Source: an archaeon
GTDB lineage: Archaea > Nanobdellota > Nanobdellia > Pacearchaeales > GW2011-AR1
Direction of reading: 5' to 3'
NCBI GenBank assembly: GCA_018657525.1
Contig: JABHWZ010000002.1
Span: 84,590-148,589, forward strand
DNA: 64,000 nucleotides
Numbering within the stretch: the first letter of the stretch is position 1; each line of letters begins with the position of its first letter. This document shows positions 1,208 to 60,477 of this stretch, one piece after another. The notes under the pieces are model-generated. The model ran no database searches and was not told where the DNA came from. It saw only the letters and a list, made by a program, of their open reading frames with translations. The position numbers and the translations under genes are program-made.

Positions 1208-1609
1208 TTATTGACTCTCCCTAAATTTTTCAACTAAACCAGTCATTTCTTTATTAATTTGTTCTAGAGTTTTTTCCAACTCAACTTTGGCAACTTCTAA
1301 TTTTTCCAGTTGTCCTTGAATAATTTCATTTGTGCCATCAATATCTTTTTTAACTAAATTTTTATTTCCAACATCTACAATTAATTCTTCCGAAATAATC
1401 TTGGCTTTAACAAAAATTCCTTTTCCAATCTGCGCCAAAATTTCTGAATCTTTTTTTCCTTTTAATTCAGTTATTCCTTTGATTAAATCATCCATATCTA
1501 CCCTCGCATTTTCAACCGCTTGAATTTGTTGATGAATGTTCTGAATCTGTTGTTCATACATTTGCAATTTATAAATCAGCTCTTGTTGATTTGCATTTGG
1601 TTGTTCCAT
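1208..1609 (-). CDS. pfdA: prefoldin alpha subunit
   Basis: Two coiled-coil arms flanking a central beta-hairpin region (GKGIFVKAKI...LIVDVG). ATG at 1609 overlaps the upstream stop as TAATG; the track start at 1636 is TTG. Confidence 0.7.
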   Translation of the reverse strand: MEQPNANQQELIYKLQMYEQQIQNIHQQIQAVENARVDMDDLIKGITELKGKKDSEILAQIGKGIFVKAKIISEELIVDVGNKNLVKKDIDGTNEIIQGQLEKLEVAKVELEKTLEQINKEMTGLVEKFRESQ

Positions 1610-2091
1610 TATTCTTGCTCCTCCTTGTCTTCCCAAAAACTTTCAAATTTTTTGTGGTATTTTTTCATGATTTCTGAAAATTCTCCCCTATCAAATTCAG
1701 TCAACTCATCAATAAATTTTCCTTCTTCAGAAGTTTCTTCAAATGAAAGACGCTTTGATTTTCTCACAAAATACATAATTTTCGCAATTAACTGATAAAT
1801 CTCTTGCTTTTCTTCTTGACTCAGTTTTTTAGCTTCTGCAGAATAAATCATATCTTGAGGATTTGGCATAATCCATGAATGCAAAACTGACACCCAAGAA
1901 TAAACTTTCTCACTAATTCGATTAATCAGCTGTCTTGAAAAGTTCGGACTCACATAGCCGTCAGTCAGAATCATGTCTTCAATAAATCCAACCTTCTCCA
2001 AATCTTCATAACTTGATTTAAACCCTAAATCCTTTTTCAATTTTGCAAATTCAGTTTTCAATTCTTCTAATAATTTTTCTTTTCTTTCCAT
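1609..2091 (-). CDS. hypothetical protein (160 aa), translationally coupled to pfdA
   Basis: Long ORF whose stop overlaps the pfdA start by 1 nt. Confidence 0.55.
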   Translation of the reverse strand: MERKEKLLEELKTEFAKLKKDLGFKSSYEDLEKVGFIEDMILTDGYVSPNFSRQLINRISEKVYSWVSVLHSWIMPNPQDMIYSAEAKKLSQEEKQEIYQLIAKIMYFVRKSKRLSFEETSEEGKFIDELTEFDRGEFSEIMKKYHKKFESFWEDKEEQE

Positions 2092-3416: not shown

Positions 3417-4865
3417 ATGGTAGATTTACGTAAAATATTCAATCTAATTCCCGAAGTGAGAAAACCAGAAGAAAAGAAATTGGACTTTAATACAAAGTTA
3501 AAATGGACTTTGGTTATTTTGGGATTCTTTTTTGTTTTAGCAAACATCCCGCTTTTTGGTTTATCAAATAATGCTCTTGAACGATTTCAGTACCTTGCAA
3601 TCATCATGGGGACAGATTTTGGTTCAATTATTTCATTAGGTATCGGACCAATTGTAATGGCGTCGATTATTCTTCAATTATTAAGTGGAGCAGGAATAAT
3701 TAACATTGACCAATCAACAACCGAGGGAAAACGATTTTTCCAAGGAGTTCAAAAATTATTAGTTTTATTCTTTATTATTTTTGAAGCATTAGTTTATGTT
3801 TTAATGGGTGGACTTCAGGCCATGCCTGGTTTGGCCTGGCTACTAATAGCCCAATTAATTTTGGGTGGCTTAGCCATATTTTTTATGGACGAAGTTTGTC
3901 AGAAGTGGGGATTCGGATCAGGAATTAGTTTATTCATCGCAGCAGGAGTTTCATGGAGATTGTTTACTTCTGCTTTCCAGTTCGTCAATGCTCAAGGTGC
4001 AAACTGCCTACTTAGCTTTAAATCAACTCCTTGCGCAGGGAAAATTCTAGTTTTAATCCAGTCACTTATGAATGGAGATCAAATGCAATTCGGGGTCGCT
4101 CTTGCTGCTCTTCTAGCCACAATAATTATTTTCTTAGTGGTTGTCTGGGCTCAATCTTTGAAGGTAGAAATTCCATTAAGTTTCGGAAAAATTCGAGGCT
4201 ACGGAGTTAAGTGGCCATTATCTTTCTTTTACGCTTCAGTTCTTCCAGTAATTCTAGTTGCAGCTTTAATAGCAAACATCCAATTATTTGGAGGAATGTT
4301 AGAAAATGCAGCAGCACCATGCGTGACAGAAGGACTCGAGGCATCATGTACTTTCTTGCCTAAAGTGGCCTCTTATTTTGGATGGTTGGGACATTTTGTC
4401 AACGGACAAGCTGTATCTGGTTTAGCTTTCTGGTTAGGTTCCAGTCCAATTCTCGAACTAGCAATTAGGGGAAGTTTGCTGCCAATTCAAATACTTCAAG
4501 GTCTAATCCATGTTCTAGCGTTTGTAATTTTATGTTCAGTTTTCTCAGTCTTCTGGGTGAAAACTTCTGGAATGGACTCACGAGCACAAGCCGAAAAAAT
4601 AGCCGCTTCAGGATTACAAGTCGCAGGTTTCAGACAAGACACAAGAATCTTAGAAAGTATTTTGGACAGATATATTATGCCTTTGACAATTATGGGCGGA
4701 GCAGCAATTGGACTTTTAGCCTCGCTGACAAATCTTTTAGGAGCTTTAGTTTCAGGAACTGCAATACTATTAGTAATCATGATTATGTTCCAGTTCTACC
4801 AAAACATTGCACAGCAACATATGTCCGACATGAATCCAGCATTCAGAAAGTTCATGGGTCAATAA
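3417..4865 (+). CDS. secY: preprotein translocase subunit SecY
   Basis: 482 aa, about 10 TM segments. N-terminus (PEVRKPEEKKLDFNTKLKWTL...) and plug/TM2 region are typical of archaeal SecY/Sec61alpha. Confidence 0.95.
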   Translation: MVDLRKIFNLIPEVRKPEEKKLDFNTKLKWTLVILGFFFVLANIPLFGLSNNALERFQYLAIIMGTDFGSIISLGIGPIVMASIILQLLSGAGIINIDQSTTEGKRFFQGVQKLLVLFFIIFEALVYVLMGGLQAMPGLAWLLIAQLILGGLAIFFMDEVCQKWGFGSGISLFIAAGVSWRLFTSAFQFVNAQGANCLLSFKSTPCAGKILVLIQSLMNGDQMQFGVALAALLATIIIFLVVVWAQSLKVEIPLSFGKIRGYGVKWPLSFFYASVLPVILVAALIANIQLFGGMLENAAAPCVTEGLEASCTFLPKVASYFGWLGHFVNGQAVSGLAFWLGSSPILELAIRGSLLPIQILQGLIHVLAFVILCSVFSVFWVKTSGMDSRAQAEKIAASGLQVAGFRQDTRILESILDRYIMPLTIMGGAAIGLLASLTNLLGALVSGTAILLVIMIMFQFYQNIAQQHMSDMNPAFRKFMGQ

Positions 4866-4866
4866 A

Positions 4867-5139
4867 TTAAATATAGTCTCTTTCTTCTCGCCATTGTTGA
4901 ACTTTTCTTTGGCAATATTCCCTGAATCTTGGATCGCTAGTATACCAACCTTTATTCACAAGTCCCAATCCTGTTTTAACTGATCTTTTTCTTCCTGAAG
5001 AATCATAGAATAAAACTTTTCCATCTAATTCATTAATATCTAATCCAAAAAAATCTCTCATAAACAAAGTTAATGCATCCCCCTGAATTCCACAACTATC
5101 ATTATGTCCTTTTTCTTGTTGTTTTAAAATACTATTCAA
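4867..5139 (-). CDS. hypothetical protein; the 5' part is probably displaced by a frameshift (see findings)
   Basis: The ORF has no ATG (the track start is TTG). Its frame is open upstream to a TAG at 5245-5247, and an ATG at 5290 in another frame fits the operon packing. Confidence 0.4.
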   Translation of the reverse strand: MNSILKQQEKGHNDSCGIQGDALTLFMRDFFGLDINELDGKVLFYDSSGRKRSVKTGLGLVNKGWYTSDPRFREYCQRKVQQWREERDYI

Positions 5140-5289: not shown

Positions 5290-5889
5290 TTATTCAAACC
5301 TTCCATAAAATCCTGGCTTTGTCGGAGTTTCTCCCCAATGTGATTTTGTAACTAATGCAATATTGCTACCTTTCAACTCTCTCATTATAACATGTCGAAT
5401 ATATTTCTTTCCTTCTAACCTAAATCTTCCAACTTCCCAAATTTTATTTTGTATAAATGGGGCAGTTCCCAATTCCCTGATGAGGTGTGTTCCAACCCTT
5501 TTGTTTCTTTTATTTTCAACAACATCAATGAATCGAGTGTGATATCTCCAAAAATTATTTCCTTGTTTTACCCATTGTAATGCACAAATTCCAATTATCT
5601 CTCTCCCGCTTAAAGCCAAAATAGACCGGTCATATTTTTCATTTTCCAAAGTCAAATCCTCCTGCTTTTCCATGGGGGATAAATCAGCTTCGTTAAAATA
5701 GTTTGAATCATCAGTAAATCTTTCTTTAATCATCCTAGGACCCAAATATTGGAACTTAACAAACGTTGGACACCTGGAGAAAGGGTCATTCACTGAATTT
5801 TTCATATTTGACAAAATATTTTCCATCTCTAGATTATCCACAATTTTTATTTCAATTTTAGACCCGTCCTTTAGGACAGCAGAATTCAT
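5290..5889 (-). CDS. putative GNAT-family N-acetyltransferase
   Basis: IGICALQWV...VVENKRNKRVGTHLIREL resembles the GNAT motif A (Q/R-x-x-G-x-G/A) region. It abuts the upstream gene with 0 nt gap. Confidence 0.4.
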   Translation of the reverse strand: MNSAVLKDGSKIEIKIVDNLEMENILSNMKNSVNDPFSRCPTFVKFQYLGPRMIKERFTDDSNYFNEADLSPMEKQEDLTLENEKYDRSILALSGREIIGICALQWVKQGNNFWRYHTRFIDVVENKRNKRVGTHLIRELGTAPFIQNKIWEVGRFRLEGKKYIRHVIMRELKGSNIALVTKSHWGETPTKPGFYGRFE

Positions 5890-7356
5890 TTACAAATCTC
5901 CTGCCCAATAAATCTGAGCTTGTTCTCCGTCACATTCCACACAAACATCTCTTAAAACTGCACCATACTTTCTTCTTTCAACATTATTTGGAAAAGTCTG
6001 TTCTAACATTCTTATTTTAGATTGCAATCTCTGGGCATCATTTTTATTAATACCAATAACTGGATGAGAATTTTGTAATTCATGCAACGTTTGAATTAAA
6101 GATCCAAATGAATGCGTCGCTTCATGATATTTATCTCCAAAATATCTAGTAGGAACTATCATCCCTCTACATGGTTTCTTTACAAACTCTCCACATAAAT
6201 AATTAAATTTTTGATTTGTTTCCAAGCTGCCAATCTCTGTAATAAATAAAGGTAAAACAATATCTCCCTCTGAAATATCATATCCCTCAGTATCTTGGAG
6301 TACCACTAAATTGCCAGAAAATCTATCACTAACATAAGCATCTTCCATTCCAATTATTCCTCTAAGAGGCTCTTGCAATTCTACCATAATAATGTCTCTT
6401 TCTTTAGGGATAGAATATTTTCTAAGTTGATGTAAATGAGTCTCCCCTAAAGGATGGCTCAGCATACATCCCTCAATTTCAGCTTCTTCATTTCCAGTTT
6501 TTAATGATTCCAATAATCTAAAAAAAGAAAAAATATCTTCATCATAATCAAAATGCAAAGGATTACAAACATCTGCCAATAAATTTTCTCCAGGCAATCT
6601 CGAACACCATGTTTTATAATTATCATAATCATATGTTACTTGAAGAATTTGGGAGGGATCAGCTAATCTAATTATTTCTGAAACATCTTGTTTAACTCCA
6701 TTTTGTGAACTATGGAGGTAACTATCTTTTAAATTAAGGCATTTGGTTCCTTCTGGACCATTAAAAATAATTGAAACATTTTGTTGCTGAGAAATTTTTC
6801 CTACTAACGCACTTGTTAACCCTCTTGTTGAATAAATTATAGAATGATTTTTTTTAAGGTAAGTATGTGATTTAAAAACAAATCCAGTATCTTCTCCACC
6901 AAAACAAGGTTCTTGAAAATGTTGTGGCTTTCTCTCGTCATCCATCATGTAAAATTTTTCTCTTGACAGAGTATTAGCCATTACCTGACAAGCAACTCCT
7001 CCCGCTCCTGAATCTCGAACTTTCTCTATTGCTTCAATTAATTCCCCCACATATTTTTCTGGTTTTTTTGGGTCCCATAAACAGGTGTGACTTTCAAATT
7101 TTCCCGGACTCTCATTTCTATCTGAACTTCTTGCAATAATTAATTTAGGTTCCTCTGGTCCCCTAGTTAGTCTTACAGAAATTTCTTCTACTTTTCTATT
7201 ACCCTCAACCTTTTCATTTTCTGAAATTGCAAACCCCTTATCTACAACATATTTTCCTGTGTTTCTATTTATTAATTCAACTAACCCTTCTGTCTTTAAT
7301 CCAAATTCAGAAATATCTCCCTTTTCTTTAGCGAGGTCTTTTAACATTAGTGGCAT
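5890..7356 (-). CDS. hypothetical enzyme with a PPDK_N-like (PEP/pyruvate-binding, ATP-grasp) N-terminal region
   Basis: FGLKTEGLVELI...VVDKGFAIS and LIIARSSDRNESPGKFES resemble the GGK..L.EL...VP.GF and AVRSSA..ED..SFAG motifs. The gene starts 18 nt after the rpl15 stop. Confidence 0.4.
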   Translation of the reverse strand: MPLMLKDLAKEKGDISEFGLKTEGLVELINRNTGKYVVDKGFAISENEKVEGNRKVEEISVRLTRGPEEPKLIIARSSDRNESPGKFESHTCLWDPKKPEKYVGELIEAIEKVRDSGAGGVACQVMANTLSREKFYMMDDERKPQHFQEPCFGGEDTGFVFKSHTYLKKNHSIIYSTRGLTSALVGKISQQQNVSIIFNGPEGTKCLNLKDSYLHSSQNGVKQDVSEIIRLADPSQILQVTYDYDNYKTWCSRLPGENLLADVCNPLHFDYDEDIFSFFRLLESLKTGNEEAEIEGCMLSHPLGETHLHQLRKYSIPKERDIIMVELQEPLRGIIGMEDAYVSDRFSGNLVVLQDTEGYDISEGDIVLPLFITEIGSLETNQKFNYLCGEFVKKPCRGMIVPTRYFGDKYHEATHSFGSLIQTLHELQNSHPVIGINKNDAQRLQSKIRMLEQTFPNNVERRKYGAVLRDVCVECDGEQAQIYWAGDL

Positions 7357-9163: not shown

Positions 9164-9664
9164 TTATTTACTTCCCTCAATCTTAGATTTAATTTCACTA
9201 AATGTTTTTGAAAAATCTTCTTTTAAGTTTTTCCCTTCAATTCTTTCCTGTTCTGGAAACGCTTCTTCCTTACATTGAATTTCTAATCCTGAATCAATAA
9301 GTCCTTTAATAAAAGAATAAACTTTTGTCTTGTAACTTGTTTTTTGCATTCCTAAATCCACAATCGGCGTTTCTAATTTCTTGTCTTGAATTTTTTTACC
9401 CATCAAATATCCAGTTAAATACGACGCTGGAATTGACTTTAAACTTCCTTTTGATTTTTCAGGCCACCCGCATTTTAACAACTCTTTTGAATTAAGAGTC
9501 ATTACTATTTTATCTTGAGCAGCTTCGCTTGTAACATATTGCGCAAGAGCAAACTTGTTTGATTTTCTAAAAACTAATCTCGGTTTCCCCCCCTTCAACA
9601 ATTTAAGTCTAACTAAATAATTCGTCTTCCCTTCTCTCCTTCTTCGTTTTGCTATTCTTTTCAT
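9164..9664 (-). CDS. rpl18: 50S ribosomal protein uL18 (L5e)
   Basis: KRRRREGKTNYLVRLKLLKGGKPRLVFRKSNK is the uL18 N-terminus. The ATG at 9664 forms an ATGA overlap with the upstream ORF. Confidence 0.9.
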   Translation of the reverse strand: MKRIAKRRRREGKTNYLVRLKLLKGGKPRLVFRKSNKFALAQYVTSEAAQDKIVMTLNSKELLKCGWPEKSKGSLKSIPASYLTGYLMGKKIQDKKLETPIVDLGMQKTSYKTKVYSFIKGLIDSGLEIQCKEEAFPEQERIEGKNLKEDFSKTFSEIKSKIEGSK

Positions 9665-9981
9665 TTTCTTAATCCCTCCCATATTTTTTGTAAATCTCTA
9701 TATCCTCGACATTTTTTTGTAAAGACTGGTTGAGCGGTTCTGTTTGTTCCAGGCAAAAAAAGACCTTCTTTATCAATTTCTGAAACTTCTCCTTTGTAAA
9801 TATCAAAACTGAAGACATCATCTCCCACCAAGTTTGATCTAGTTAAAACTAATTGACCTTCTTTAGGAGCATTCCCAAAGAAAAATTTTCTAAGTTCAGG
9901 ATTTCTTTCAACTCTCCCCATAAAACCTATATAATAATAATCTACTGAAGTATCATATACTCTCCCGACTTCAGCATTCAT
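9661..9981 (-). CDS. hypothetical protein (106 aa) intercalated between rpl19e and rpl18
   Basis: The ORF fills the junction exactly, with ATGA overlaps at both ends. It has no r-protein similarity and carries the SD GGGAGGG for rpl18 in its last codons. Confidence 0.65.
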   Translation of the reverse strand: MNAEVGRVYDTSVDYYYIGFMGRVERNPELRKFFFGNAPKEGQLVLTRSNLVGDDVFSFDIYKGEVSEIDKEGLFLPGTNRTAQPVFTKKCRGYRDLQKIWEGLRK

Positions 9982-10382
9982 TTTCTTAATCCTCCAATAT
10001 ACTCTTTCAAGTTTGCTTTACTTCTAAACATTTTATTTCTTATCCTCTTCCTAATTTCATTCACTTCTTCGATATTTAAGGCTTTTTGTTTTTTCAATTC
10101 ATTAACATAGGCTCTCAACTTCCGAGTCATAATCACATATTTCTTTTTTCTATCATTGACTTTCTTTCTAATATTCCCCGTACTTCTTTTAACCTTTGTC
10201 TTAATTTTTTTTCTTCCTTGAACATTCTTAATCAAAATTGCTCCATCCTTTAATAAATCCCGAATATCTTGCTTTGTAATGGCCTCTTTAATTTCTTCTA
10301 ATCGCGCTTCTACAAAATTAATTCTTGCTTTCCCCACATTTAATGTTCTTGCTGTTAATTCTTTCTTTTTCCTTAAGTTCAT
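9978..10382 (-). CDS. rpl19e: 50S ribosomal protein eL19
   Basis: LRKKKELTARTLNVGKARI...IKEAITKQDIRDL is the L19e pattern. Confidence 0.9.
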   Translation of the reverse strand: MNLRKKKELTARTLNVGKARINFVEARLEEIKEAITKQDIRDLLKDGAILIKNVQGRKKIKTKVKRSTGNIRKKVNDRKKKYVIMTRKLRAYVNELKKQKALNIEEVNEIRKRIRNKMFRSKANLKEYIGGLRK

Positions 10383-10795
10383 TTTTTATTATCCTTCGCT
10401 TTTTTAGTTGATTCTTTTTTCTCATTCTTTTTCAAAAACTTTTTTTCATTTAAATTTAAAATTTTAATTCCTAATTCTTTTGCTTTTTTAACCAATTCAA
10501 TCTTTTTCTTTTTTCCAATACTCGCCAAAGTAATCTCCTTACTTTTAACATTTTCTAATTCTTTCATATTTTCAATTGTTTCAATTTTAATTCTATCTGC
10601 CTCGCCTTTTTTATAACCAATTGCTACAACAGCGGGATATCCTTTTTTTTGCTCTCTCATTTTATTATCTCTTCCAGTTGGTCTTCGCCATTTTTGATTT
10701 TTCTTAGTTCTCTTTCCAAGTTTAACATATCGAGCTGCATCTCTTCTCAAAAATTTCGGCTTTTTCTTTTTAATAGTTTTATTTTCTTCAACCAT
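10379..10795 (-). CDS. rpl32e: 50S ribosomal protein eL32
   Basis: KPKFLRRDAARYVKLGKRTKKNQKWRRPTGRDNKMR is the L32e signature. Confidence 0.85.
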   Translation of the reverse strand: MVEENKTIKKKKPKFLRRDAARYVKLGKRTKKNQKWRRPTGRDNKMREQKKGYPAVVAIGYKKGEADRIKIETIENMKELENVKSKEITLASIGKKKKIELVKKAKELGIKILNLNEKKFLKKNEKKESTKKAKDNKK

Positions 10796-11956: not shown

Positions 11957-12313
11957 TTATTCTTGACCTCCTCTACTCATTTGAGTTTTTCTTGAAAGGA
12001 TATCTGCCCCCATTCTTTCATATTGTTCTTGCGGGATACCATATTTGCTTTTAGCCAGAGTTATTGCTTCATCCAATTCTCTTAATTTTCCCCTAAGCTT
12101 TGAACGATCATAACCTACTAGGTAATCTTCTAATTCTGATAGATATTTTATTTTTCCTGGTAAACTCCATCCACTAACTGTTTCTCCATTTAAATGCTCG
12201 AGTGCTTGAGTAATTACTAAGTCCTTCTGTCCGCTTAAATCTTTTGCGGTATTTGTCAATGCTGCTATGAACCTTCTATCTAATTCACTTAATTGTTTCG
12301 TTTCAGTTGTCAT
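11957..12313 (-). CDS. hypothetical protein (118 aa) intercalated between rps14 and rps8
   Basis: There are 1-nt gaps on both sides. The last codons AGA GGA GGT CAA GAA provide the SD GGAGGT for rps8. Confidence 0.65.
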   Translation of the reverse strand: MTTETKQLSELDRRFIAALTNTAKDLSGQKDLVITQALEHLNGETVSGWSLPGKIKYLSELEDYLVGYDRSKLRGKLRELDEAITLAKSKYGIPQEQYERMGADILSRKTQMSRGGQE

Positions 12314-12314
12314 T

Positions 12315-12545
12315 TTAACTATATTTTGTAAAGCCGATTTCTACTGCTAACTTTCGAAAACAGTGTCGACATAAATTTAATCCGTATGAGTTTACTCTTG
12401 CACCAAACCGACCGCAGTTCTCGCATTTTTGCGCAGCAACTCCAAACTTTCTGTCCCTTGGTTTATTATGTTTCAAAAACTTTGCTTTTATTGCTGGTTT
12501 ATTATCCAACTGCGTCATTACTTTTTTCCAATCGCTTGCTGTCAT
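12315..12545 (-). CDS. rps14: 30S ribosomal protein uS14 (zinc-binding type) with an N-terminal extension
   Basis: CENCGRFGARVNSYGLNLCRHCFR is the C-x2-C...C-x2-C uS14 core. Confidence 0.85.
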   Translation of the reverse strand: MTASDWKKVMTQLDNKPAIKAKFLKHNKPRDRKFGVAAQKCENCGRFGARVNSYGLNLCRHCFRKLAVEIGFTKYS

Positions 12546-12880
12546 TTTACTAATCTTGCCTCCCCATATTTTTTTATCAATTTTCTCCCTTCAAAAGTTT
12601 CAGAGTCAAATCTTTCTATTATAATACCCTCTTGATAATTATCTATCGCGAACCTTCCAGCGTAAGCAATTACTTCTTCAATAGGCACCATCCATTGTGT
12701 CCAATTCCTTCCACAAATCCCTTTATCTCCCAATAAAATCATTGTTCCTTCTTCATCCCTTTCTAACAACATAGCATCAAACCTTCCGTCGATGTAATCT
12801 CCTTGATCTAGTACTGGGAAGACGTCCCCGACTTGTAAATTTTTTACTTGTTCCATATTTTCTAATGTTTCATATTTCAT
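12542..12880 (-). CDS. hypothetical acidic protein (112 aa) intercalated between rpl5 and rps14
   Basis: ATGA overlaps at both ends. The SD GGGGAGG for rps14 sits in its last codons. Confidence 0.65.
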   Translation of the reverse strand: MKYETLENMEQVKNLQVGDVFPVLDQGDYIDGRFDAMLLERDEEGTMILLGDKGICGRNWTQWMVPIEEVIAYAGRFAIDNYQEGIIIERFDSETFEGRKLIKKYGEARLVK

Positions 12881-14059: not shown

Positions 14060-14407
14060 TTACAATCCTGCCTCCGTTAGTTTTGGATCTAATTTTTCAT
14101 ATTCTGCGCTTCCTTCAAGAAAGCTTCCATTTAAGATATTTTGTCCCATCCAAGAATCCTCTTTATATTCTAAAACGCTAATACTTTTCGGATAAGCAGG
14201 TATAATCCCTCCCAATATTTCAAGACTCCCTGTTGCAGGTCTTCTGACAAGGGTATATAATTTTTTCTCCTCTAAATCAACCTTTGCAACTAATTCGCGT
14301 GACGCACATGGCTTTAATAAAACATCTTTAATCATTATATCATGTAGAGTTCTATCTAAAGAATCCCTCCATGGGTCTATTATTAATTCATGCCCGTTTC
14401 GTATCAT
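14060..14407 (-). CDS. hypothetical protein (115 aa) intercalated between rpl24 and rps4e
   Basis: ATGA overlap with the rpl24 stop and 0-nt gap to the rps4e ATG. The SD GGAGG for rps4e sits in its last codons. Confidence 0.65.
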   Translation of the reverse strand: MIRNGHELIIDPWRDSLDRTLHDIMIKDVLLKPCASRELVAKVDLEEKKLYTLVRRPATGSLEILGGIIPAYPKSISVLEYKEDSWMGQNILNGSFLEGSAEYEKLDPKLTEAGL

Positions 14408-14860: not shown

Positions 14861-15262
14861 TTAATAAACCACTGAAGCGATTTTTGCAACTTGCGGCCAT
14901 CGCTCTAGAACCTCCCTTGCAATTGGTCCTTTAATCTGAGTTCCTTTTGGATTGCCTTTTTCATCTTTCAAAATAGCAACTGCATTATCTTCAAATGCCA
15001 CTCGCTCTCCGCTGTTTCTTCTCCATGATTTTTTCTGTCGAATTATTACTGCGTCAAAAACTTTCCCTTTCATGTCAGGCACGCCCTTCCGGATTGAAAC
15101 CTTTACCCAATCTGCAATTTTAGCACTTACCTGTTTAGATTTTTTAGCTTTAGCCTTTTTAACTGAAACAATTTTAACCATCTTCGCCCCACTATTATCT
15201 GCCGCGGGCATAATTGCACCGAGGTTAAAAGCTGAAGTTGTTCGCGCGCTTATTGCTTTCAT
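14861..15262 (-). CDS. rpl14: 50S ribosomal protein uL14
   Basis: ADNSGAKMVKIVSV...VFDAVIIRQKK..RR..G..V.FEDNA is the uL14 pattern. Confidence 0.95.
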   Translation of the reverse strand: MKAISARTTSAFNLGAIMPAADNSGAKMVKIVSVKKAKAKKSKQVSAKIADWVKVSIRKGVPDMKGKVFDAVIIRQKKSWRRNSGERVAFEDNAVAILKDEKGNPKGTQIKGPIAREVLERWPQVAKIASVVY

Positions 15263-15537
15263 TTTACATCCTCCCCTAATAATCCCTCAACTCTTAAATG
15301 ATTCCATGCTCTACTTCTTCTAATTTCTGCACTTTCACATCCTCCAATGCACCCACATCCTATTTGATATTCTCTAATGGTCACTTTTTCTCCATCCGAG
15401 TAAGCAAATATATTTGTTCCACATTGAGGATTTTGGCATCCAAATAAAACTCCTTTTTGCCCACTCACTAAAATATTCTGTGGGACATATGGATTAGATT
15501 CAAACCTGTGAATATCTTGAGGCCTTATTGCTTTCAT
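15259..15537 (-). CDS. hypothetical Cys-rich protein (92 aa) intercalated between rps17 and rpl14
   Basis: ATGA overlaps at both ends. Its first 14 nt are identical to the rpl14 start (MKAI). CQNPQCG...CGCIGGC is a possible metal site. The SD GGGGAGGA for rpl14 sits in its last codons. Confidence 0.65.
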   Translation of the reverse strand: MKAIRPQDIHRFESNPYVPQNILVSGQKGVLFGCQNPQCGTNIFAYSDGEKVTIREYQIGCGCIGGCESAEIRRSRAWNHLRVEGLLGEDVK

Positions 15538-15971
15538 TTTTTCTCTTCTCCAGATTTATCTTCTTTATTCAGTGTTTCACGATGCTCATGTGAAATGGAT
15601 TTAATAAACACAAAATGGATAATCTTACTCAAAGGTCGGCACTCTTGAATCTGAACTAAGTCCCCAATATTTACTGACGCTTCTAAGCATATTGGCAATC
15701 TAGCATGAAGTTTGGTTCTTGATTTAGTATATCTTTCATATTTTCTTACGTAAACTGTTCTTTCAAGTTCAATTACAATTCTTTTTTTAAATTTCTTGGT
15801 AACTGTTCCTTCAAAGATTCGCCCATGAGTTTTTAATTTTCCATGAATATTACAATCTATATCTTTGCATTCTTTCAGAGTCTCTGCTACTTTTGCTCCC
15901 TTCCGTGCTTCGCGATGCCTATGCGCAATGGCGCTTTCTGTTTTTTTCTTTGTCATTTTCTTTTCTGTCAT
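15534..15971 (-). CDS. rps17: 30S ribosomal protein uS17 with terminal extensions
   Basis: GRIFEGTVTKKFKKRIVIELERTVYVRKYERY...IGDLVQIQECRPLSK is uS17. The ATG at 15971 has AGGTGA 13 nt upstream; the alternative ATG at 16040 would overlap sui1 by 11 nt. Confidence 0.85.
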   Translation of the reverse strand: MTEKKMTKKKTESAIAHRHREARKGAKVAETLKECKDIDCNIHGKLKTHGRIFEGTVTKKFKKRIVIELERTVYVRKYERYTKSRTKLHARLPICLEASVNIGDLVQIQECRPLSKIIHFVFIKSISHEHRETLNKEDKSGEEKK

Positions 15972-18417: not shown

Positions 18418-18669
18418 TTAATCTGTTCCTTGCCTCCAATCCTTAGCTGAGCGATAATTTCCATCATACAAACATTTTTTACATCCTTGATCACTACTAG
18501 AGTATGTGCAATAGTGAGAAATTGCTCCACTAGATTTCATATATGGGGCCCAAGTTTCTTTTCTCCCTTTTTGAGCAGGGCAATCTTTTTCAAATTCTCT
18601 TAACATTCCCATTACTTTTATTGCTTCACTATTATCTTCTTCTGTGCTTGTCGTTGTTTTTTTTACCAT
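18418..18669 (-). CDS. hypothetical Cys-containing protein (83 aa) intercalated between rpl2 and rps19
   Basis: There are 1-nt gaps on both sides. The SD GGAGG for rps19 lies near its 3' end. Confidence 0.6.
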   Translation of the reverse strand: MVKKTTTSTEEDNSEAIKVMGMLREFEKDCPAQKGRKETWAPYMKSSGAISHYCTYSSSDQGCKKCLYDGNYRSAKDWRQGTD

Positions 18670-21205: not shown

Positions 21206-22155
21206 CGCAACGCCACCAGCTCAAAAGCTTTTTTATTTTGTTTTTTAGTCTCTCTCAACGGAGCAGTAATTAATAATTGTCTTTTTGCCGATCCTTGCAC
21301 ACTTCCTGCAACAACTAAATATTCATTATGAACATTTCCATAATTTTTAATATTTGCAATCGGTTTATCATCTGCTTTGGCCAAGTCAATGATTTTATTG
21401 TTGTAAACCACCCTCGTAAACATACCCAGCTGACCAGCCATCGGAGTTCTAAAAGTTACACGAGCCGGATGCCACGGAGCAATTGAACCAACTTTTCTCA
21501 GCCCTTTTTCTGATTTATGAAATCTAAGTTTAATACCAAATCTTTTTACTGGACCTGAAAAACCTTTACCTTTTGTTAAACCTCTAACATCTACCAACTT
21601 TCCTACCTCAAAAATATCTGAAACCGCAATTTCCTTTGTCAAATTTTCTTTAATCCATGCCATTTTTTCAGTGATATCTTGGCCTGTCAATCCAATTTCT
21701 ATTAAATCTGGTGTTTTTTTAATTTCAGTTTTTTTAACTTGAGAATAAGCAATCACCGCAACATCATCATACTCCTCAATTTTAACATCATCTAATTTTG
21801 CTTTATTTTGTTTAGGAATTTTAACTTTCTTTTTTAGTTCTTTATCTAAGTTTTCAGAAAGAATATCTTTCGCCACTTTTTTGTTTTTATAAAATCTTAC
21901 AGAAAAAATCTTTAATGTTGGACACTCGAGAATAGTTACCGGGACAACAATTTCCTTGCCCTTTGTCATTGAATCTTCTGTGCTGTCTTTAACATAAGCC
22001 GAAGCCATTCCAGCTTTATAACAAATGAATCCTTTAAGTCCTTTAGAATTTTCAGATGGAATCGCACTCCAGTTAACTCTAGGCAAAGCTTTTCTGGCTC
22101 GCTTCCGCGGCCAAAATTGCAAACTTCCTCTTCGTGGTCTTGATAATGTTGGCAT
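21202..22155 (-). CDS. rpl3: 50S ribosomal protein uL3
   Basis: RPRRGSLQFWPRKRA...GFICYKAGM...TKGKGFSGPVKRFG is archaeal uL3. Confidence 0.95.
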   Translation of the reverse strand: MPTLSRPRRGSLQFWPRKRARKALPRVNWSAIPSENSKGLKGFICYKAGMASAYVKDSTEDSMTKGKEIVVPVTILECPTLKIFSVRFYKNKKVAKDILSENLDKELKKKVKIPKQNKAKLDDVKIEEYDDVAVIAYSQVKKTEIKKTPDLIEIGLTGQDITEKMAWIKENLTKEIAVSDIFEVGKLVDVRGLTKGKGFSGPVKRFGIKLRFHKSEKGLRKVGSIAPWHPARVTFRTPMAGQLGMFTRVVYNNKIIDLAKADDKPIANIKNYGNVHNEYLVVAGSVQGSAKRQLLITAPLRETKKQNKKAFELVALR

Positions 22156-26157: not shown

Positions 26158-26424
26158 ATGAGAGAATCAGAACAAAGAAAAAAAATAGTAGAATACCTTA
26201 AAAGAAATCTGAAAAAAGGTTATACTCTGGACTCACTTCGTTGGGCATTAATCAATCAAGATTATTCAAAAGTTTTAATTGAAAATGCAATTGACAAAGT
26301 GCACCAAGAATTAGCAGAAAAAGCCCCAATCTTAAAAGAAAAACCAAAGATTACATATCAGATTATGGATGAAGAAGATAATCCGGTAAATTTTAAAAAA
26401 CCATGGTGGAAGTTTTTTTCATAA
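26158..26424 (+). CDS. hypothetical protein (88 aa)
   Basis: ORF with a TATA-like CTTTTAAAC about 25 nt upstream. Confidence 0.5.
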   Translation: MRESEQRKKIVEYLKRNLKKGYTLDSLRWALINQDYSKVLIENAIDKVHQELAEKAPILKEKPKITYQIMDEEDNPVNFKKPWWKFFS

Positions 26425-26462
26425 AACAAAACCTTTAAAACTCTTTCATTTCTATTTTTAAT

Positions 26463-26478
26463 ATGCCGCCATCGCATA
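26463..26478 (+). repeat. direct repeat copy 1 of ATGCCGCCATCGCATA (the tRNA-Ser 5' acceptor/D segment)
   Basis: 16/16 identical to 26538-26553, 75 bp upstream of it. Confidence 0.9.
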
Positions 26479-26539
26479 GTTCCTTTGGTCTCGCTAACGC
26501 GAACACGATGGTTAAGATAAAAGAACCAAAGAGACACAT

Positions 26540-26620
26540 GCCGCCATCGCATAATGGTATTGCATCCGGCTTGAGACCGGAGCCCTTTTGGGCGTCCCCG
26601 TTCGATTCGGGGTGGCGGCG
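26540..26620 (+). tRNA. tRNA-Ser (anticodon UGA), class II with a 14-nt variable arm; no encoded CCA
   Basis: Hand-folded cloverleaf. Acceptor GCCGCCA/TGGCGGC, D stem GCA/TGC, anticodon stem TCCGG/CCGGA with loop CTTGAGA, variable arm GCCC-TTTT-GGGC, T arm CCCCG-TTCGATT-CGGGG, discriminator G. Confidence 0.85.
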
Positions 26621-26703
26621 TTCTGGAGAATCGAACTTCGATTTCGAGCGATTTCGTGGTAGCAGGATAATCCCAAAAAAACTGCGAGCGAGATCGGGAG
26701 TCA

Positions 26704-26733
26704 GGGTGGCGGCGTTTTGTGGGAGAATCGAAC
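26704..26733 (+). repeat. direct repeat copy 2 of the tRNA-Ser 3' end plus trailer (GGGTGGCGGCGTT..GGAGAATCGAAC)
   Basis: GGGTGGCGGCGTT (26704-26716) equals 26610-26622, and GGAGAATCGAAC (26722-26733) equals 26625-26636. The copies are 94-97 bp apart. Confidence 0.85.
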
Positions 26734-26854
26734 TGGTTAAACACAGATATTTTTCTGCAATCTTTGATGTTGGGCTCTTTAATTTAATACTAAGTCAGAG
26801 CAGAATGTTTATAACTATTAATGATTAGTAGGTATAGTAAAAGGAGGTAAAAAA

Positions 26855-32856: not shown

Positions 32857-33234
32857 ATGGAAAGTGGTGAAAAGCCTAAAATAAAATATGTTAATGAATT
32901 TGAGAAAGATATTCATAAACTAAAGAAGTATAGGTCAATAGTAAGTGATGTTGAAGTTTTTATAAAAGCTCTATTGGGATATTTTCCCAATTTAGAACAT
33001 TCAACTTTTCATGTAAAAAAGTTAACAGATTTTGGAGAAGGATTTCACTTCATATATAAGGCAAGAAAAGTTCGTTGTAAATATCTTAAAAGTACAAGGG
33101 ATTTAAGAATTATTTACACTTATAATCCTTACGAAAATAAAATAATCTTAATCGCAATTTATGCAAAAAATAAACAGGCAAATCATGATGTCAATAGAAT
33201 AAAACCTTATTTGGTAAAAAAAATTAACAACTAA
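32857..33234 (+). CDS. RelE/ParE-superfamily toxin-like protein (125 aa)
   Basis: EFEKDIHKLKK... and C-terminal LRIIYTYNPYENKIILIAIYAKN resemble the RelE/ParE/HigB pattern (RiiY...i.l..i..k). Confidence 0.45.
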   Translation: MESGEKPKIKYVNEFEKDIHKLKKYRSIVSDVEVFIKALLGYFPNLEHSTFHVKKLTDFGEGFHFIYKARKVRCKYLKSTRDLRIIYTYNPYENKIILIAIYAKNKQANHDVNRIKPYLVKKINN

Positions 33235-33766
33235 TTTCGAGACCATTTTTTACAGAAAATTTATCATCCCTATAAAACACTAATTCATAATCTATTTCTT
33301 TCCCACTTTCTGTAGCTTTCCAGGGAATATCTTCATGAGAATATGCGCTCGCTCCACTGCCAGACATAGATGAAAGTTTTTGTATAGCTTTATCTATAAT
33401 TCTAAGTTCGTCCCCATTAAGTAAATTTAAGCTAGGTTCAGAGAATGATATAGCCTTTATTTGATTAAATGAGCCATATTTCGTGTTGATAACTTTAACT
33501 TTCTTTTTTGACTGAAGTTTTGTTATTCCCGTCTCGAAATGTGATGGAGCAGGTCCAAGGGGCAATTTAAAATAGCTTTCTCCACTAATAGATTTATCAC
33601 ATAATTCATAGAAATCAAAGTCTGAAAAATACATTATTTTGTAGAGTACAACTTTACCTACATTTTGCAATCCCGATGTTTTATAAATAACATAATGTAA
33701 CATTTGTAGGAACTTTTGTTCATCAAAGACATTATTATCGTCTACCATAATAACCTCTTTTTTCAT
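33224..33766 (-). CDS. DUF4065 / Panacea (SocA-like) domain protein, putative antitoxin
   Basis: VVLYKIMYFSDFDFYELCDKSISGESYFKLPLGPAP matches the KL.KLLYf.D......G.pi.g..y.....GPv core of DUF4065. Confidence 0.55.
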   Translation of the reverse strand: MKKEVIMVDDNNVFDEQKFLQMLHYVIYKTSGLQNVGKVVLYKIMYFSDFDFYELCDKSISGESYFKLPLGPAPSHFETGITKLQSKKKVKVINTKYGSFNQIKAISFSEPSLNLLNGDELRIIDKAIQKLSSMSGSGASAYSHEDIPWKATESGKEIDYELVFYRDDKFSVKNGLEISC

Positions 33767-59980: not shown

Positions 59981-60223
59981 TTATTGTTGTTTTTTGTGGT
60001 ACAATCCCAAGATATAGATTAAATCTTTATTAATAATTAAATAAGAAAGTCTAAATGGTTTAATGTAAAGTTCTCTTGTCCCTTTTCTAACATTTCTCAT
60101 TGGTTTTCCAACTTCAGGATTATCTGATATTTTTTTAATTTGCTTTTGAATTTTTGTTCTAATAAAATTGTCTAACTTAGAAAAAATTTCAACAAATTTT
60201 TTATCAAAACGTATTTCTACCAT
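59981..60223 (-). CDS. RelE/ParE-family toxin
   Basis: 80 aa. ...ISDNPEVGKPMRNVRKGTRELYIKPFRLSYLI...IYILGLYHK is the RelE/ParE pattern. It overlaps the upstream antitoxin by 7 nt. Confidence 0.7.
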   Translation of the reverse strand: MVEIRFDKKFVEIFSKLDNFIRTKIQKQIKKISDNPEVGKPMRNVRKGTRELYIKPFRLSYLIINKDLIYILGLYHKKQQ

Positions 60224-60477
60224 TTTAACATTTCATCAAGATTTTCAGAATCAATACTAACAAACTCCCCAGTTTCAATTCTCTTGTGTGCTTCTTCAGT
60301 TCTTTTTGCAAATTCCAAATCTTCCTCGATATTATCTGCAAAATCCTCTACTTTTTTAAGAATTATCTGCTTATCATTTCTTATCACAATTAATTTGTCT
60401 CCTTCATTAAAATCTTTTCTAAGTGATTGAGGGATAACAACCTGCCCCCTTGAACTTACTTTTGTAATTTCTATCAT
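60217..60477 (-). CDS. AbrB/SpoVT (MazE-like) family antitoxin
   Basis: ITKVSSRGQVVIPQSLRKDF is the swapped-hairpin AbrB motif. Confidence 0.75.
   Translation of the reverse strand: MIEITKVSSRGQVVIPQSLRKDFNEGDKLIVIRNDKQIILKKVEDFADNIEEDLEFAKRTEEAHKRIETGEFVSIDSENLDEMLKW

Follow-up and report, generated by a model that had tools for sequence, protein, structure and literature searches.

Between the genes for L19e and L18 in the S10-spc ribosomal protein (r-protein) cluster of a DPANN archaeon lies a 106-residue open reading frame (ORF), here called ins106, and we consider it probable that this ORF was inserted into the overlap of stop and start codon that formerly joined the two genes, that the short coupling cassette at this junction was duplicated in the process and that translation of L18 was thereby preserved. 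The locus belongs to a 64-kb stretch of contig JABHWZ010000002.1 (hereafter the window), archaeal DNA with a GC content of 33% whose nearest named relatives are metagenome-assembled genomes of Pacearchaeota, Woesearchaeota and 'Nanoarchaeota'. The S10-spc cluster runs on the minus strand from approximately position 22155 down to 7375; within it, rpl19e (9978..10382; Pfam PF01280 and PF25476, 2993 homologues) is followed on the same strand by ins106 (9661..9981, from the ORF list) and rpl18 (9164..9664; uL18/L5e family, Pfam PF17144). Comparison with related operons, which are cited below by three-digit locus numbers (L002 and so on), shows ins106 as a lineage-specific insertion and, as far as its sequence reveals, an orphan.

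The initial annotation had reported a repeat at the two ends of ins106, and this was found as quoted: the plus strand reads TCATTTTCTTAATCCCTCCCATATT at 9661-9685 and TCATTTTCTTAATCCTCCAATATA at 9978-10001. Both copies have a perfect 15-nt core in common, GGATTAAGAAAATGA, beyond which the match runs for 9 nt further upstream with one 1-nt indel and one mismatch, to give a total of approximately 23 nt. Read on the coding strand, ins106 ends in ...ATATGGGAGGGATTAAGAAAATGA and rpl19e in ...ATATTGGAGG-ATTAAGAAAATGA; the core is in the same frame in both, so that both proteins end G-L-R-K (L19e: ...EYIGGLRK, encoded by GAG TAT ATT GGA GGA TTA AGA AAA TGA; ins106: ...KIWEGLRK, with AAA ATA TGG GAG GGA TTA AGA AAA TGA as its coding end). 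The upstream similarity of the two copies, ATAT·GGAGG, aligns only after a 1-nt shift and, being out of frame, is not convergence at the level of the protein; it adds little weight, because most of it is the functionally constrained GGAGG. The copy at the end of rpl19e (9978..10001, minus strand) comprises the last seven L19e codons (Y I G G L R K) and the TGA/ATG overlap: the GGAGG Shine-Dalgarno (SD) motif lies within the Gly-Gly codons and is followed by a 9-nt spacer and by the TGA that overlaps the ATG of ins106 (ATGA). The copy at the end of ins106 (9661..9685, minus strand; codons I W E G L R K), which holds the sole second occurrence of the 15-mer in the window, likewise consists of GGAGG, the same ATTAAGAAA spacer and a TGA that overlaps the ATG of L18. 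Thus the L19e stop overlaps the ins106 start at ATGAATGCT and the ins106 stop overlaps the L18 start at ATGAAAAGAATAGCA, whilst the spacing from copy to copy is 317 nt, which is ≡ 2 mod 3, as an ATGA-to-ATGA arrangement requires. L18 itself begins with the ATG at 9662-9664 (MKRIAKRRR), and its N-terminus aligns with the MR(I/V)AKRRR or MKIAKRRR of relatives. The further statement that both ends carry the same SD motif, ATGA overlap and -GLRK ending is hence confirmed by the sequence and the ORF list.

Empty sites are present in all related operons examined. In three relatives from GTDB (L002-L004), L19e overlaps L18 directly via ATGA; L005-L010 likewise lack ins106 at this junction, as do some 50 further metagenomic loci, so that approximately 60 related operons lack it overall, with L19e leading into L18 either directly or through a mini-ORF of 19 codons. 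The empty-site relatives carry the sequence of the L19e copy once, directly upstream of L18. The nearest relatives, with L19e 81%, 75% and 74% identical to that of the window, contain 0-2 inserts in the whole cluster, none of which is ins106, and keep the flanking gene order (EMC3-like, prefoldin, RRM, IF-2B, SpoIIM, STT3). No homologue of ins106 was found among 5.8 billion protein clusters, in which only ins106 itself was matched, nor in an exhaustive HMMER scan of 1.84 billion cluster representatives, and Pfam and PHROG gave no match. A weak HMMER match to a 991-aa repeat protein (P0002, E = 1e-4) is spurious, being one marginal segment summed over the repeats, and this protein and ins106 have no Pfam domain in common. 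There is no second copy of ins106 within the window or in the databases searched, the rest of the genome having been outside this search. The proposal of an insertion between rpl19e and rpl18, with homologous operons in which the site is empty, is thus borne out.

The direction of copying follows from the L19e tail. The 120 best L19e relatives conserve -YIGGL(R/K)K as their C-terminus, 31 of them ending in GLRK and 19 in GLKK; since this tail is conserved in the clade and ins106 is absent from the relatives, the L19e copy is native and the tail of ins106 is the derived one. The initial annotation had named as an objection that the -GLRK/ATGA ending could be a conserved feature of L19e-L18 junctions that arises independently: conserved in the clade it is, but an independent origin in ins106 has a probability of only about 1e-4 per pair, and conservation of the L19e tail does not account for the same 15 nt at the end of an unrelated orphan protein. 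Nor is ins106 an assembly artefact: 34 contigs of independent assemblies carry it without any difference, as many as carry the neighbouring L19e.

The ins106 frame is maintained open and has a host-like codon composition. It was never open in 3000 dinucleotide shuffles (P < 1/3000), and every other frame contains 6-12 stops; its GC at the three codon positions (0.45/0.36/0.18) resembles that of host genes, and for the window inserts pooled these values are 0.44/0.36/0.22 vs 0.42/0.34/0.24 for the r-protein genes. The pooled amino acid composition of the inserts is unlike that of r-proteins, with Lys at 8% vs 17.5% and with higher Cys, Trp and Tyr. Fusion of L19e and ins106 by recoding or read-through of the TGA was rejected, since inspection by eye showed that the L19e frame past the TGA reaches a TAG after 12 codons.

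The boundaries of ins106 resemble known termination-reinitiation systems in being co-directional 4-nt ATGA overlaps with an intragenic GGAGG, which is placed inside the preceding ORF, 9 nt ahead of the ATG for ins106 and 10 nt ahead of it for L18. Of 14 ATGA pairs tested in Haloferax and E. coli, 13 were strictly coupled, with a variable contribution of the SD motif (Huber et al. 2019, PMC6728339), and the architecture shown experimentally to couple translation includes r-protein pairs (PMC6728339). The difference at ins106 is that the coupling cassette is duplicated around an extra ORF in an essential operon. Judged by this architecture, L18 would be coupled to ins106 in the host organism, and we infer that the duplicated tail of ins106 preserves coupled L18 translation. 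The same provision is seen at other inserts: of the 11 r-protein genes preceded by an insert in the window, 9 have their SD motif in the last codons of that insert, and across the clade an SD motif is present upstream of 55% of genes after inserts vs 39% at direct junctions (p = 4e-4). The gain is strongest where the conserved tail of the upstream r-protein cannot encode an SD motif: upstream of S8 the frequency rises from 0% to 75%, upstream of L24 from 2% to 39% and upstream of L2 from 16% to 71%.

The sequence of events that we propose starts from an ancestral state in which the L19e tail would have supplied L18 with both the SD motif and the stop/start overlap, so that an insertion at this point would separate L18 from both. 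Insertion would have taken place exactly at the 4-nt ATGA overlap, and either the insertion itself or a repair step soon after would have duplicated the last ~23 nt of L19e, comprising GGAGG, the 9-nt spacer of the Leu-Arg-Lys codons and ATGA. In the resulting arrangement ins106 would take its ATG from the left copy and its TGA from the right copy, with L19e keeping its native C-terminus; ribosomes ending L19e could restart on ins106, and those ending ins106 could restart on L18 in its former sequence context. Possible routes to this arrangement include fill-in after a staggered break, template switching, and integration, by a single crossover, of a circle with one copy of the junction. Selection probably acted as a filter, in that only insertions leaving a complete junction on both sides would survive in an essential coupled operon.

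An ORF in such a position could also be open for no other reason than to carry ribosomes across to the next gene and keep it coupled, with a protein that lacks function, an explanation that is compatible with the duplication and that we regard as possible but rather unlikely. It would suit the orphan status of ins106 and its low-confidence fold (an AlphaFold2 single-sequence model has a mean predicted local distance difference test score of 51 and is uninformative on the fold); it would also suit the 16-19-codon mini-ORFs of relatives, which vary freely in peptide and keep both overlaps, and the several small insert families in which the ratio of nonsynonymous to synonymous substitution rates (dN/dS) is 0.4-0.86. 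However, the amino acid composition is like that of globular proteins rather than random, Cys motifs in several window inserts suggest metal binding, and purifying selection (dN/dS 0.09-0.3) acts on the larger insert families of relatives, which are clearly functional genes, namely an RNase_T-type exonuclease at L4-L23 and MazG and NUDIX at L30-L15.

How much weight the repeat can bear as evidence of copying depends on the null that is used. The 15-mer is found exactly twice in the window, where 0.13 occurrences are expected from composition at ≤1 mismatch; the repeat is thus in excess of base composition, the comparison proposed by the initial annotation, but a composition-only null overstates the case because many junctions share a GGAGG-N-AAAATGA or TAAAATG design. 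The nulls used here therefore preserve the shared junction architecture. When the 630 junction pairs of the window are ranked by score, L19e/ins106, a cognate pair, comes second and S17/ins92, discussed below, third. For 141 inserts from related loci, cognate pairs are more alike than non-cognate ones (Mann-Whitney p = 3e-4) and L19e/ins106 is the best of all, whilst, with anchoring at the stop codon, no other insert in the set of 138 shows an exact run of 12 nt (null ~1e-4 per pair). By a position-specific scoring matrix for the composition of ends in which GGAGG and AAAATGA are both present, the spacer found here, ATTAAG, has a probability of 1-3e-4, and it is found in 1 of 1271 other such ends. 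We estimate a chance match at approximately 1e-4 per pair, or 1e-3 to 1e-2 family-wise when allowing for the number of inserts examined: the statistical weight of the repeat is moderate, not overwhelming. Chance is nevertheless made unlikely by these architecture-aware nulls, and the claim that a duplicated junction flanks the insert is to this extent supported.

Several observations weigh against the proposed origin. Non-cognate pairs within the window score equally (S4e/ins82b 19.5, L4/S3 17.0); in the strictest null, restricted to ends that already have both GGAGG and AAAATGA, 12-13 nt are in common in 1.2% of unrelated pairs, always through poly-A spacers; and once the SD motif and AAAATGA have been removed, the informative part of the repeat is only ~6 nt plus the spacing. 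Copying of the 3' end of the upstream gene shows no general trend over 138 inserts (p = 0.07-0.26), so that ins106 stands alone in this respect. No empty allele, with the L19e tail joined directly to AAAGAATAGCAAAACG, is on record for the species of ins106, there are no terminal inverted repeats in 9600-10060, and no recombinase, transposase or integrase is found among the window ORFs scanned with Pfam. Translation of ins106 is itself a prediction from sequence alone, and the ancestral state of the L19e-L18 junction may have been the 19-codon mini-ORF, which would complicate a single-step scenario.

Part of this evidence speaks for convergence, in which selection for an SD motif, an A-rich spacer and an ATGA overlap would have recreated 15 nt like those of L19e without any copying. 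The GGAGG…AAAATGA architecture is common to many junctions, and insert tails are generally enriched in SD motifs for the downstream gene when only that of ins106 resembles the upstream tail, so that selection alone usually suffices; to these are added the non-cognate pairs of equal score and the 1.2% of unrelated ends with runs of 12-13 nt. However, the convergent cases all run through poly-A spacers and not through the rare ATTAAG, the match falls on the cognate pair although 630 pairs were possible, and a second cognate pair of the operon, at S17-ins92-L14, is also duplicated, in this case in codons 2-5 of L14, which are beyond the reach of SD selection. Convergence thus appears unlikely to us, and the ins106 tail would accordingly have been copied.

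This second duplication concerns ins92, a 92-aa Cys-rich orphan on the minus strand between S17 and L14 (15259..15537) that has no Pfam match, finds only itself in the 5.8e9 clusters and is not expected to be open by chance (P < 1/3000). It is bracketed by a 17-nt repeat, AAAATGAAAGCAATAAG, identified by a repeat search of the window: the left copy (15524..15540, minus strand) lies where the S17 stop overlaps the ins92 start, and the right copy (15249..15265, minus strand) where the ins92 stop overlaps the native L14 start. Consequently, ins92 and L14 both open with M-K-A-I in identical codons, the longest such 5' run among 138 inserts, and the spacing of the copies, 275 nt, is again ≡ 2 mod 3. 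An unrelated insert family at the same junction in L011 and L027 opens with ATGAAAGCNATA, the first four codons of L14, and this site is empty in L017, in which L14 is 94.5% identical to that of L027, and in L086. Over the 138 inserts, the first bases after the ATG tend significantly to match those of the downstream gene (p = 1e-4 for run length), with three runs of ≥8 nt shared with the downstream gene start seen vs 0.3 expected. In L029 (1065-1300), the interval between the S17 stop and L14 contains a head-to-tail array of a 56-nt unit, with 4.2 copies of which three are identical; ATGA links each unit, itself a mini-ORF, to the following one, and the period of 56 is ≡ 2 mod 3. This is direct evidence that junction-to-junction tandem duplication operates in operons of the clade.

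Inserts at r-protein junctions are widespread in the clade and turn over quickly. Their number per cluster is very uneven and ranges from 0 to 11, with the load of the window being the highest; the 192 insert ORFs of the related loci are mostly singletons, and all of them fit their junctions to the nucleotide, the stop/start offset at either end being -4 or +1. Between L058 and L083, in which the L14 DNA is 89% identical, 13 of the 22 r-protein junctions are occupied differently, and this indicates very rapid gain and loss. Insertion has recurred at the L19e-L18 junction, which is occupied by ins106 in the window, by a mini-ORF in L005, L009, L069 and L084, and by the gene of a conserved protein of 153-160 aa (the 159-aa family; dN/dS about 0.09) in L014 (13934-14413), L046 (13984-14457) and L061 (14233-14694). 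A homologue of this last family is encoded in the window at 1609-2091 (minus strand; 41% identity, E = 3e-30), between the EMC3-like and prefoldin genes, so that the gene lies inside the operon in some genomes and outside in others.

Many r-protein junctions in related genomes are filled by a further element of ~52 nt (approximately 46-57 nt), which forms a bridging mini-ORF of 16-19 codons with the peptide consensus MKANQRFSFIRNKY.G.FK* and the DNA consensus ATGAAAGCAAATCAAAGATTTTCATTCATTC…GGAG…AAATGA. Every one of the 39 significant copies found in 837 kb is on the coding strand, and almost every one lies at a junction (13 at S17-L14, 8 at L5-S14), with up to four per locus (for example L009:6319-6370 and 10406-10457) and with copies at several junctions in L061, L069 and L013. 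Two further mini-ORF families have the sequences MTE..FSTNKNSGEFS* and MKNRKFFNVLVNSGYKKGGFA*. At these junctions Rfam detects only tRNAs, and it contains no family corresponding to the mini-ORF; the element could be a selfish repeat, an internal promoter or SD cassette, or a structured RNA. In the window, a search with nhmmer and a 16-seed profile gave a best match of E = 0.05 inside L5 and none in ins106, by which the element is ruled out as the source of ins106 or ins92. As a separate observation, the 55-nt gap between S19 and L22 (17966-18020, in the region 18417-18020; ...atggcaaacattttaactgcattttttgcagaac...) is vaguely like this element, with a profile search that was not significant.

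Such findings raise the possibility that ins106 is the cargo of a junction-targeting mobile element, with the repeat as a target-site duplication or att core and the AAAATGA or TAAAATG motif as the recombination site, a more specific form of the insertion we propose and one that we consider quite improbable. Some insert families do occupy different junctions in different genomes (L023 at L14-L24 vs L058 and L083 at S8-L6; L004 at L14-L24 vs L066 at S8-L6; L080 at L32e-L19e vs a family at L30-L15), and the strand-specific, junction-bound mini-ORF element, the turnover at 13 junctions between L058 and L083 and the position of the 159-aa family outside the operon in the window all point in this direction. 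As with transposable elements and miniature inverted-repeat transposable elements, a direct repeat of host sequence brackets ins106 and the empty site of relatives carries one copy of it. In contrast to these, ins106 is single-copy in the window and without relatives in the databases searched, has neither terminal inverted repeats nor a transposase or integrase among the scanned window ORFs, and is flanked by a repeat that at 15-23 nt is longer than a typical transposase target-site duplication and that is moreover functional, providing start, stop and SD motif within the reading frame of the insert; the mini-ORF element is also absent from the window. The likeness to integron cassettes, in which small promoterless orphan ORFs gather in one orientation in a transcribed array and differ between close relatives, is equally partial: ins106 overlaps both neighbours by 4 nt and so leaves no space for an attC-like site, there being neither non-coding DNA nor inverted repeats; no IntI is found among the Pfam-scanned window ORFs; and the window inserts are interleaved with essential r-protein genes instead of being stacked at one attI.

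By far the least probable explanation is that ins106 is a decayed tandem duplicate of a segment spanning the 3' part of L19e and the 5' part of L18, its interior diverged and its constrained end remaining: although junction-to-junction tandem duplication is seen in L029 and such an origin predicts, as is observed, inserts whose 3' end is like that of the upstream gene and whose 5' end is like that of the downstream gene, it is largely refuted, as in six-frame comparison no window insert resembles any r-protein, no DNA similarity to the neighbours extends beyond the junction, the amino acid composition is far from that of r-proteins, a neutrally decaying AT-rich segment of 317 nt would not stay open (P < 1/3000), and the 19-codon mini-ORF of L005 and L009, tested in the same manner as a decayed L19e tail or L18 head, gave a negative result (shuffle tests, P = 0.2-0.98).

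In wider terms, and only tentatively, we suggest that r-protein stop/start junctions may act in this clade as a landing pad and nursery for new genes, by way of junction-directed insertion and duplication. The shared stop-start motif would here serve as the recombination substrate, and the ORFs seeded at it would be expressed at once through coupling and turn over quickly; the duplication at ins106 would be a footprint of this process and the ~52-nt mini-ORF element, with its tandem arrays, its smallest unit. In the organism of ins106 the process would have given rise to approximately 14 orphan proteins, within a gene array that ranks with the most conserved and most highly expressed. Two further kinds of known arrangement may be compared with the inserts. 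Non-ribosomal passengers of archaeal r-protein clusters, such as SUI1, RNase P subunits, secY, adk and cmk, are ancient and conserved. The inserts resemble them as non-ribosomal genes that are co-expressed with the S10-spc cluster, and the relatives carry RNase_T, MazG and NUDIX at junctions; those of the window differ in being orphans that vary between close relatives, fill half of the junctions and show junction duplications. Free-standing homing endonuclease genes are selfish ORFs that sit between conserved phage genes ('intronless homing'), and the placement of ORFs precisely between conserved, highly expressed genes with variable presence among relatives is similar; here the difference is that the window inserts show no endonuclease domain in Pfam or PHROG and are much smaller and mutually unrelated. 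The arrangement at ins106 combines a coupled-operon architecture with an insertion that has a flanking duplication. In a literature search with incomplete full-text coverage, we came across no account of orphan ORFs in the r-protein operons of DPANN archaea, nor of duplicated junctions there.

Beyond ins106 and ins92, extra ORFs are numerous in the ribosomal clusters of the window. In the S10-spc cluster, 11 of 22 consecutive r-protein junctions hold one, of 57-118 aa. An ORF scan placed the others, all on the minus strand, as follows: ins77 between L3 and L4 (20972..21205), ins82 between L4 and L23 (19909..20157), ins90 between L23 and L2 (19383..19655), ins83b between L2 and S19 (18418..18669), ins57 between S3 and L29 (16517..16690), ins115 between L24 and S4e (14060..14407), ins112 between L5 and S14 (12542..12880), ins118 between S14 and S8 (11957..12313) and ins83 between S8 and L6 (11340..11573), the last with an uncertain start (74-83 aa). 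Three more lie in the L1-L10-L12 and Spt5-L11 clusters, giving approximately 14 orphan ORFs overall: ins82b between L1 and L10 (36724..36972, minus strand) and the Cys-rich ins75 between L10 and L12 (35224..35451, minus strand), both with neighbours named by eye (for ins82b from their N-termini), and an ORF from the scan between Spt5 and L11 (48399-48833, plus strand). The thirteen inserts besides ins106 span 57-144 aa, and several are Cys-rich. Searches of the large protein collections were made with ins106 and ins92 only; Pfam and PHROG gave no match for any window insert, and no homologue of any of them was found among the 192 insert ORFs of related loci. The window inserts are not mutually related either, with nothing below E = 0.04 in an all-against-all BLASTP comparison. 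A viral origin was rejected, as no window insert has a PHROG match below E = 0.004, and a scan of viral contigs with ins118 was negative. The first ~16 codons of ins112 (12831-12877, MKYETLENMEQVKNLQ) resemble the interior of L32e (10541-10587, ETIENMKELENVK), with 81% identity over 48 nt (E = 3e-5 within the window), and ins82b and ins75 match the same stretch of L32e weakly; this likeness may reflect the low complexity of A-rich sequence or else the copying of a small segment. Taken together, these ~14 orphan ORFs, their quick turnover and the junction mini-element are more remarkable than the single repeat.

Some neighbouring features of the window were also recorded. The relatives have SecY immediately after L15 and on its strand, whereas in the window SecY (3417-4865) is inverted onto the plus strand and L15 is followed by three unannotatable ORFs of 488 aa (5890-7356), 199 aa (5290-5889) and 90 aa (4867-5139), the first of which has no match in Pfam, PHROG or viral contigs. 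A tRNA gene at 26540-26620 (plus strand), missed in the whole-window gathering run and detected only with permissive Rfam filters, explains the GC-rich patch at 26.4-26.8 kb, so that the 128-aa ORF on the opposite strand (26358-26744) is probably spurious. A protein with a SocA/Panacea antitoxin domain (33224-33766, minus strand; Pfam) and a small gene pair that by eye is AbrB/SpoVT-like and RelE/ParE-like (59981-60477, minus strand) look like toxin-antitoxin modules in an otherwise housekeeping region.

The S10-spc cluster is among the most conserved of gene arrays, and its genes serve as a phylogenetic marker set because their arrangement is assumed to be stable. In the organism studied here, half of the S10-spc junctions hold orphans that vary between close relatives, and in at least two of them part of a neighbouring gene has probably been copied, by which coupling in the operon would be kept intact. 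Annotation and binning pipelines that assume a fixed r-protein order will mis-handle such genomes. If our interpretation is true, it shows how an essential coupled operon tolerates insertions, namely by duplication of the coupling cassette; it would provide a concrete route by which new or foreign ORFs attain immediate high expression in promoter-poor genomes, and it would make these clusters a natural system for dating, at individual junctions, how orphan genes originate and turn over.

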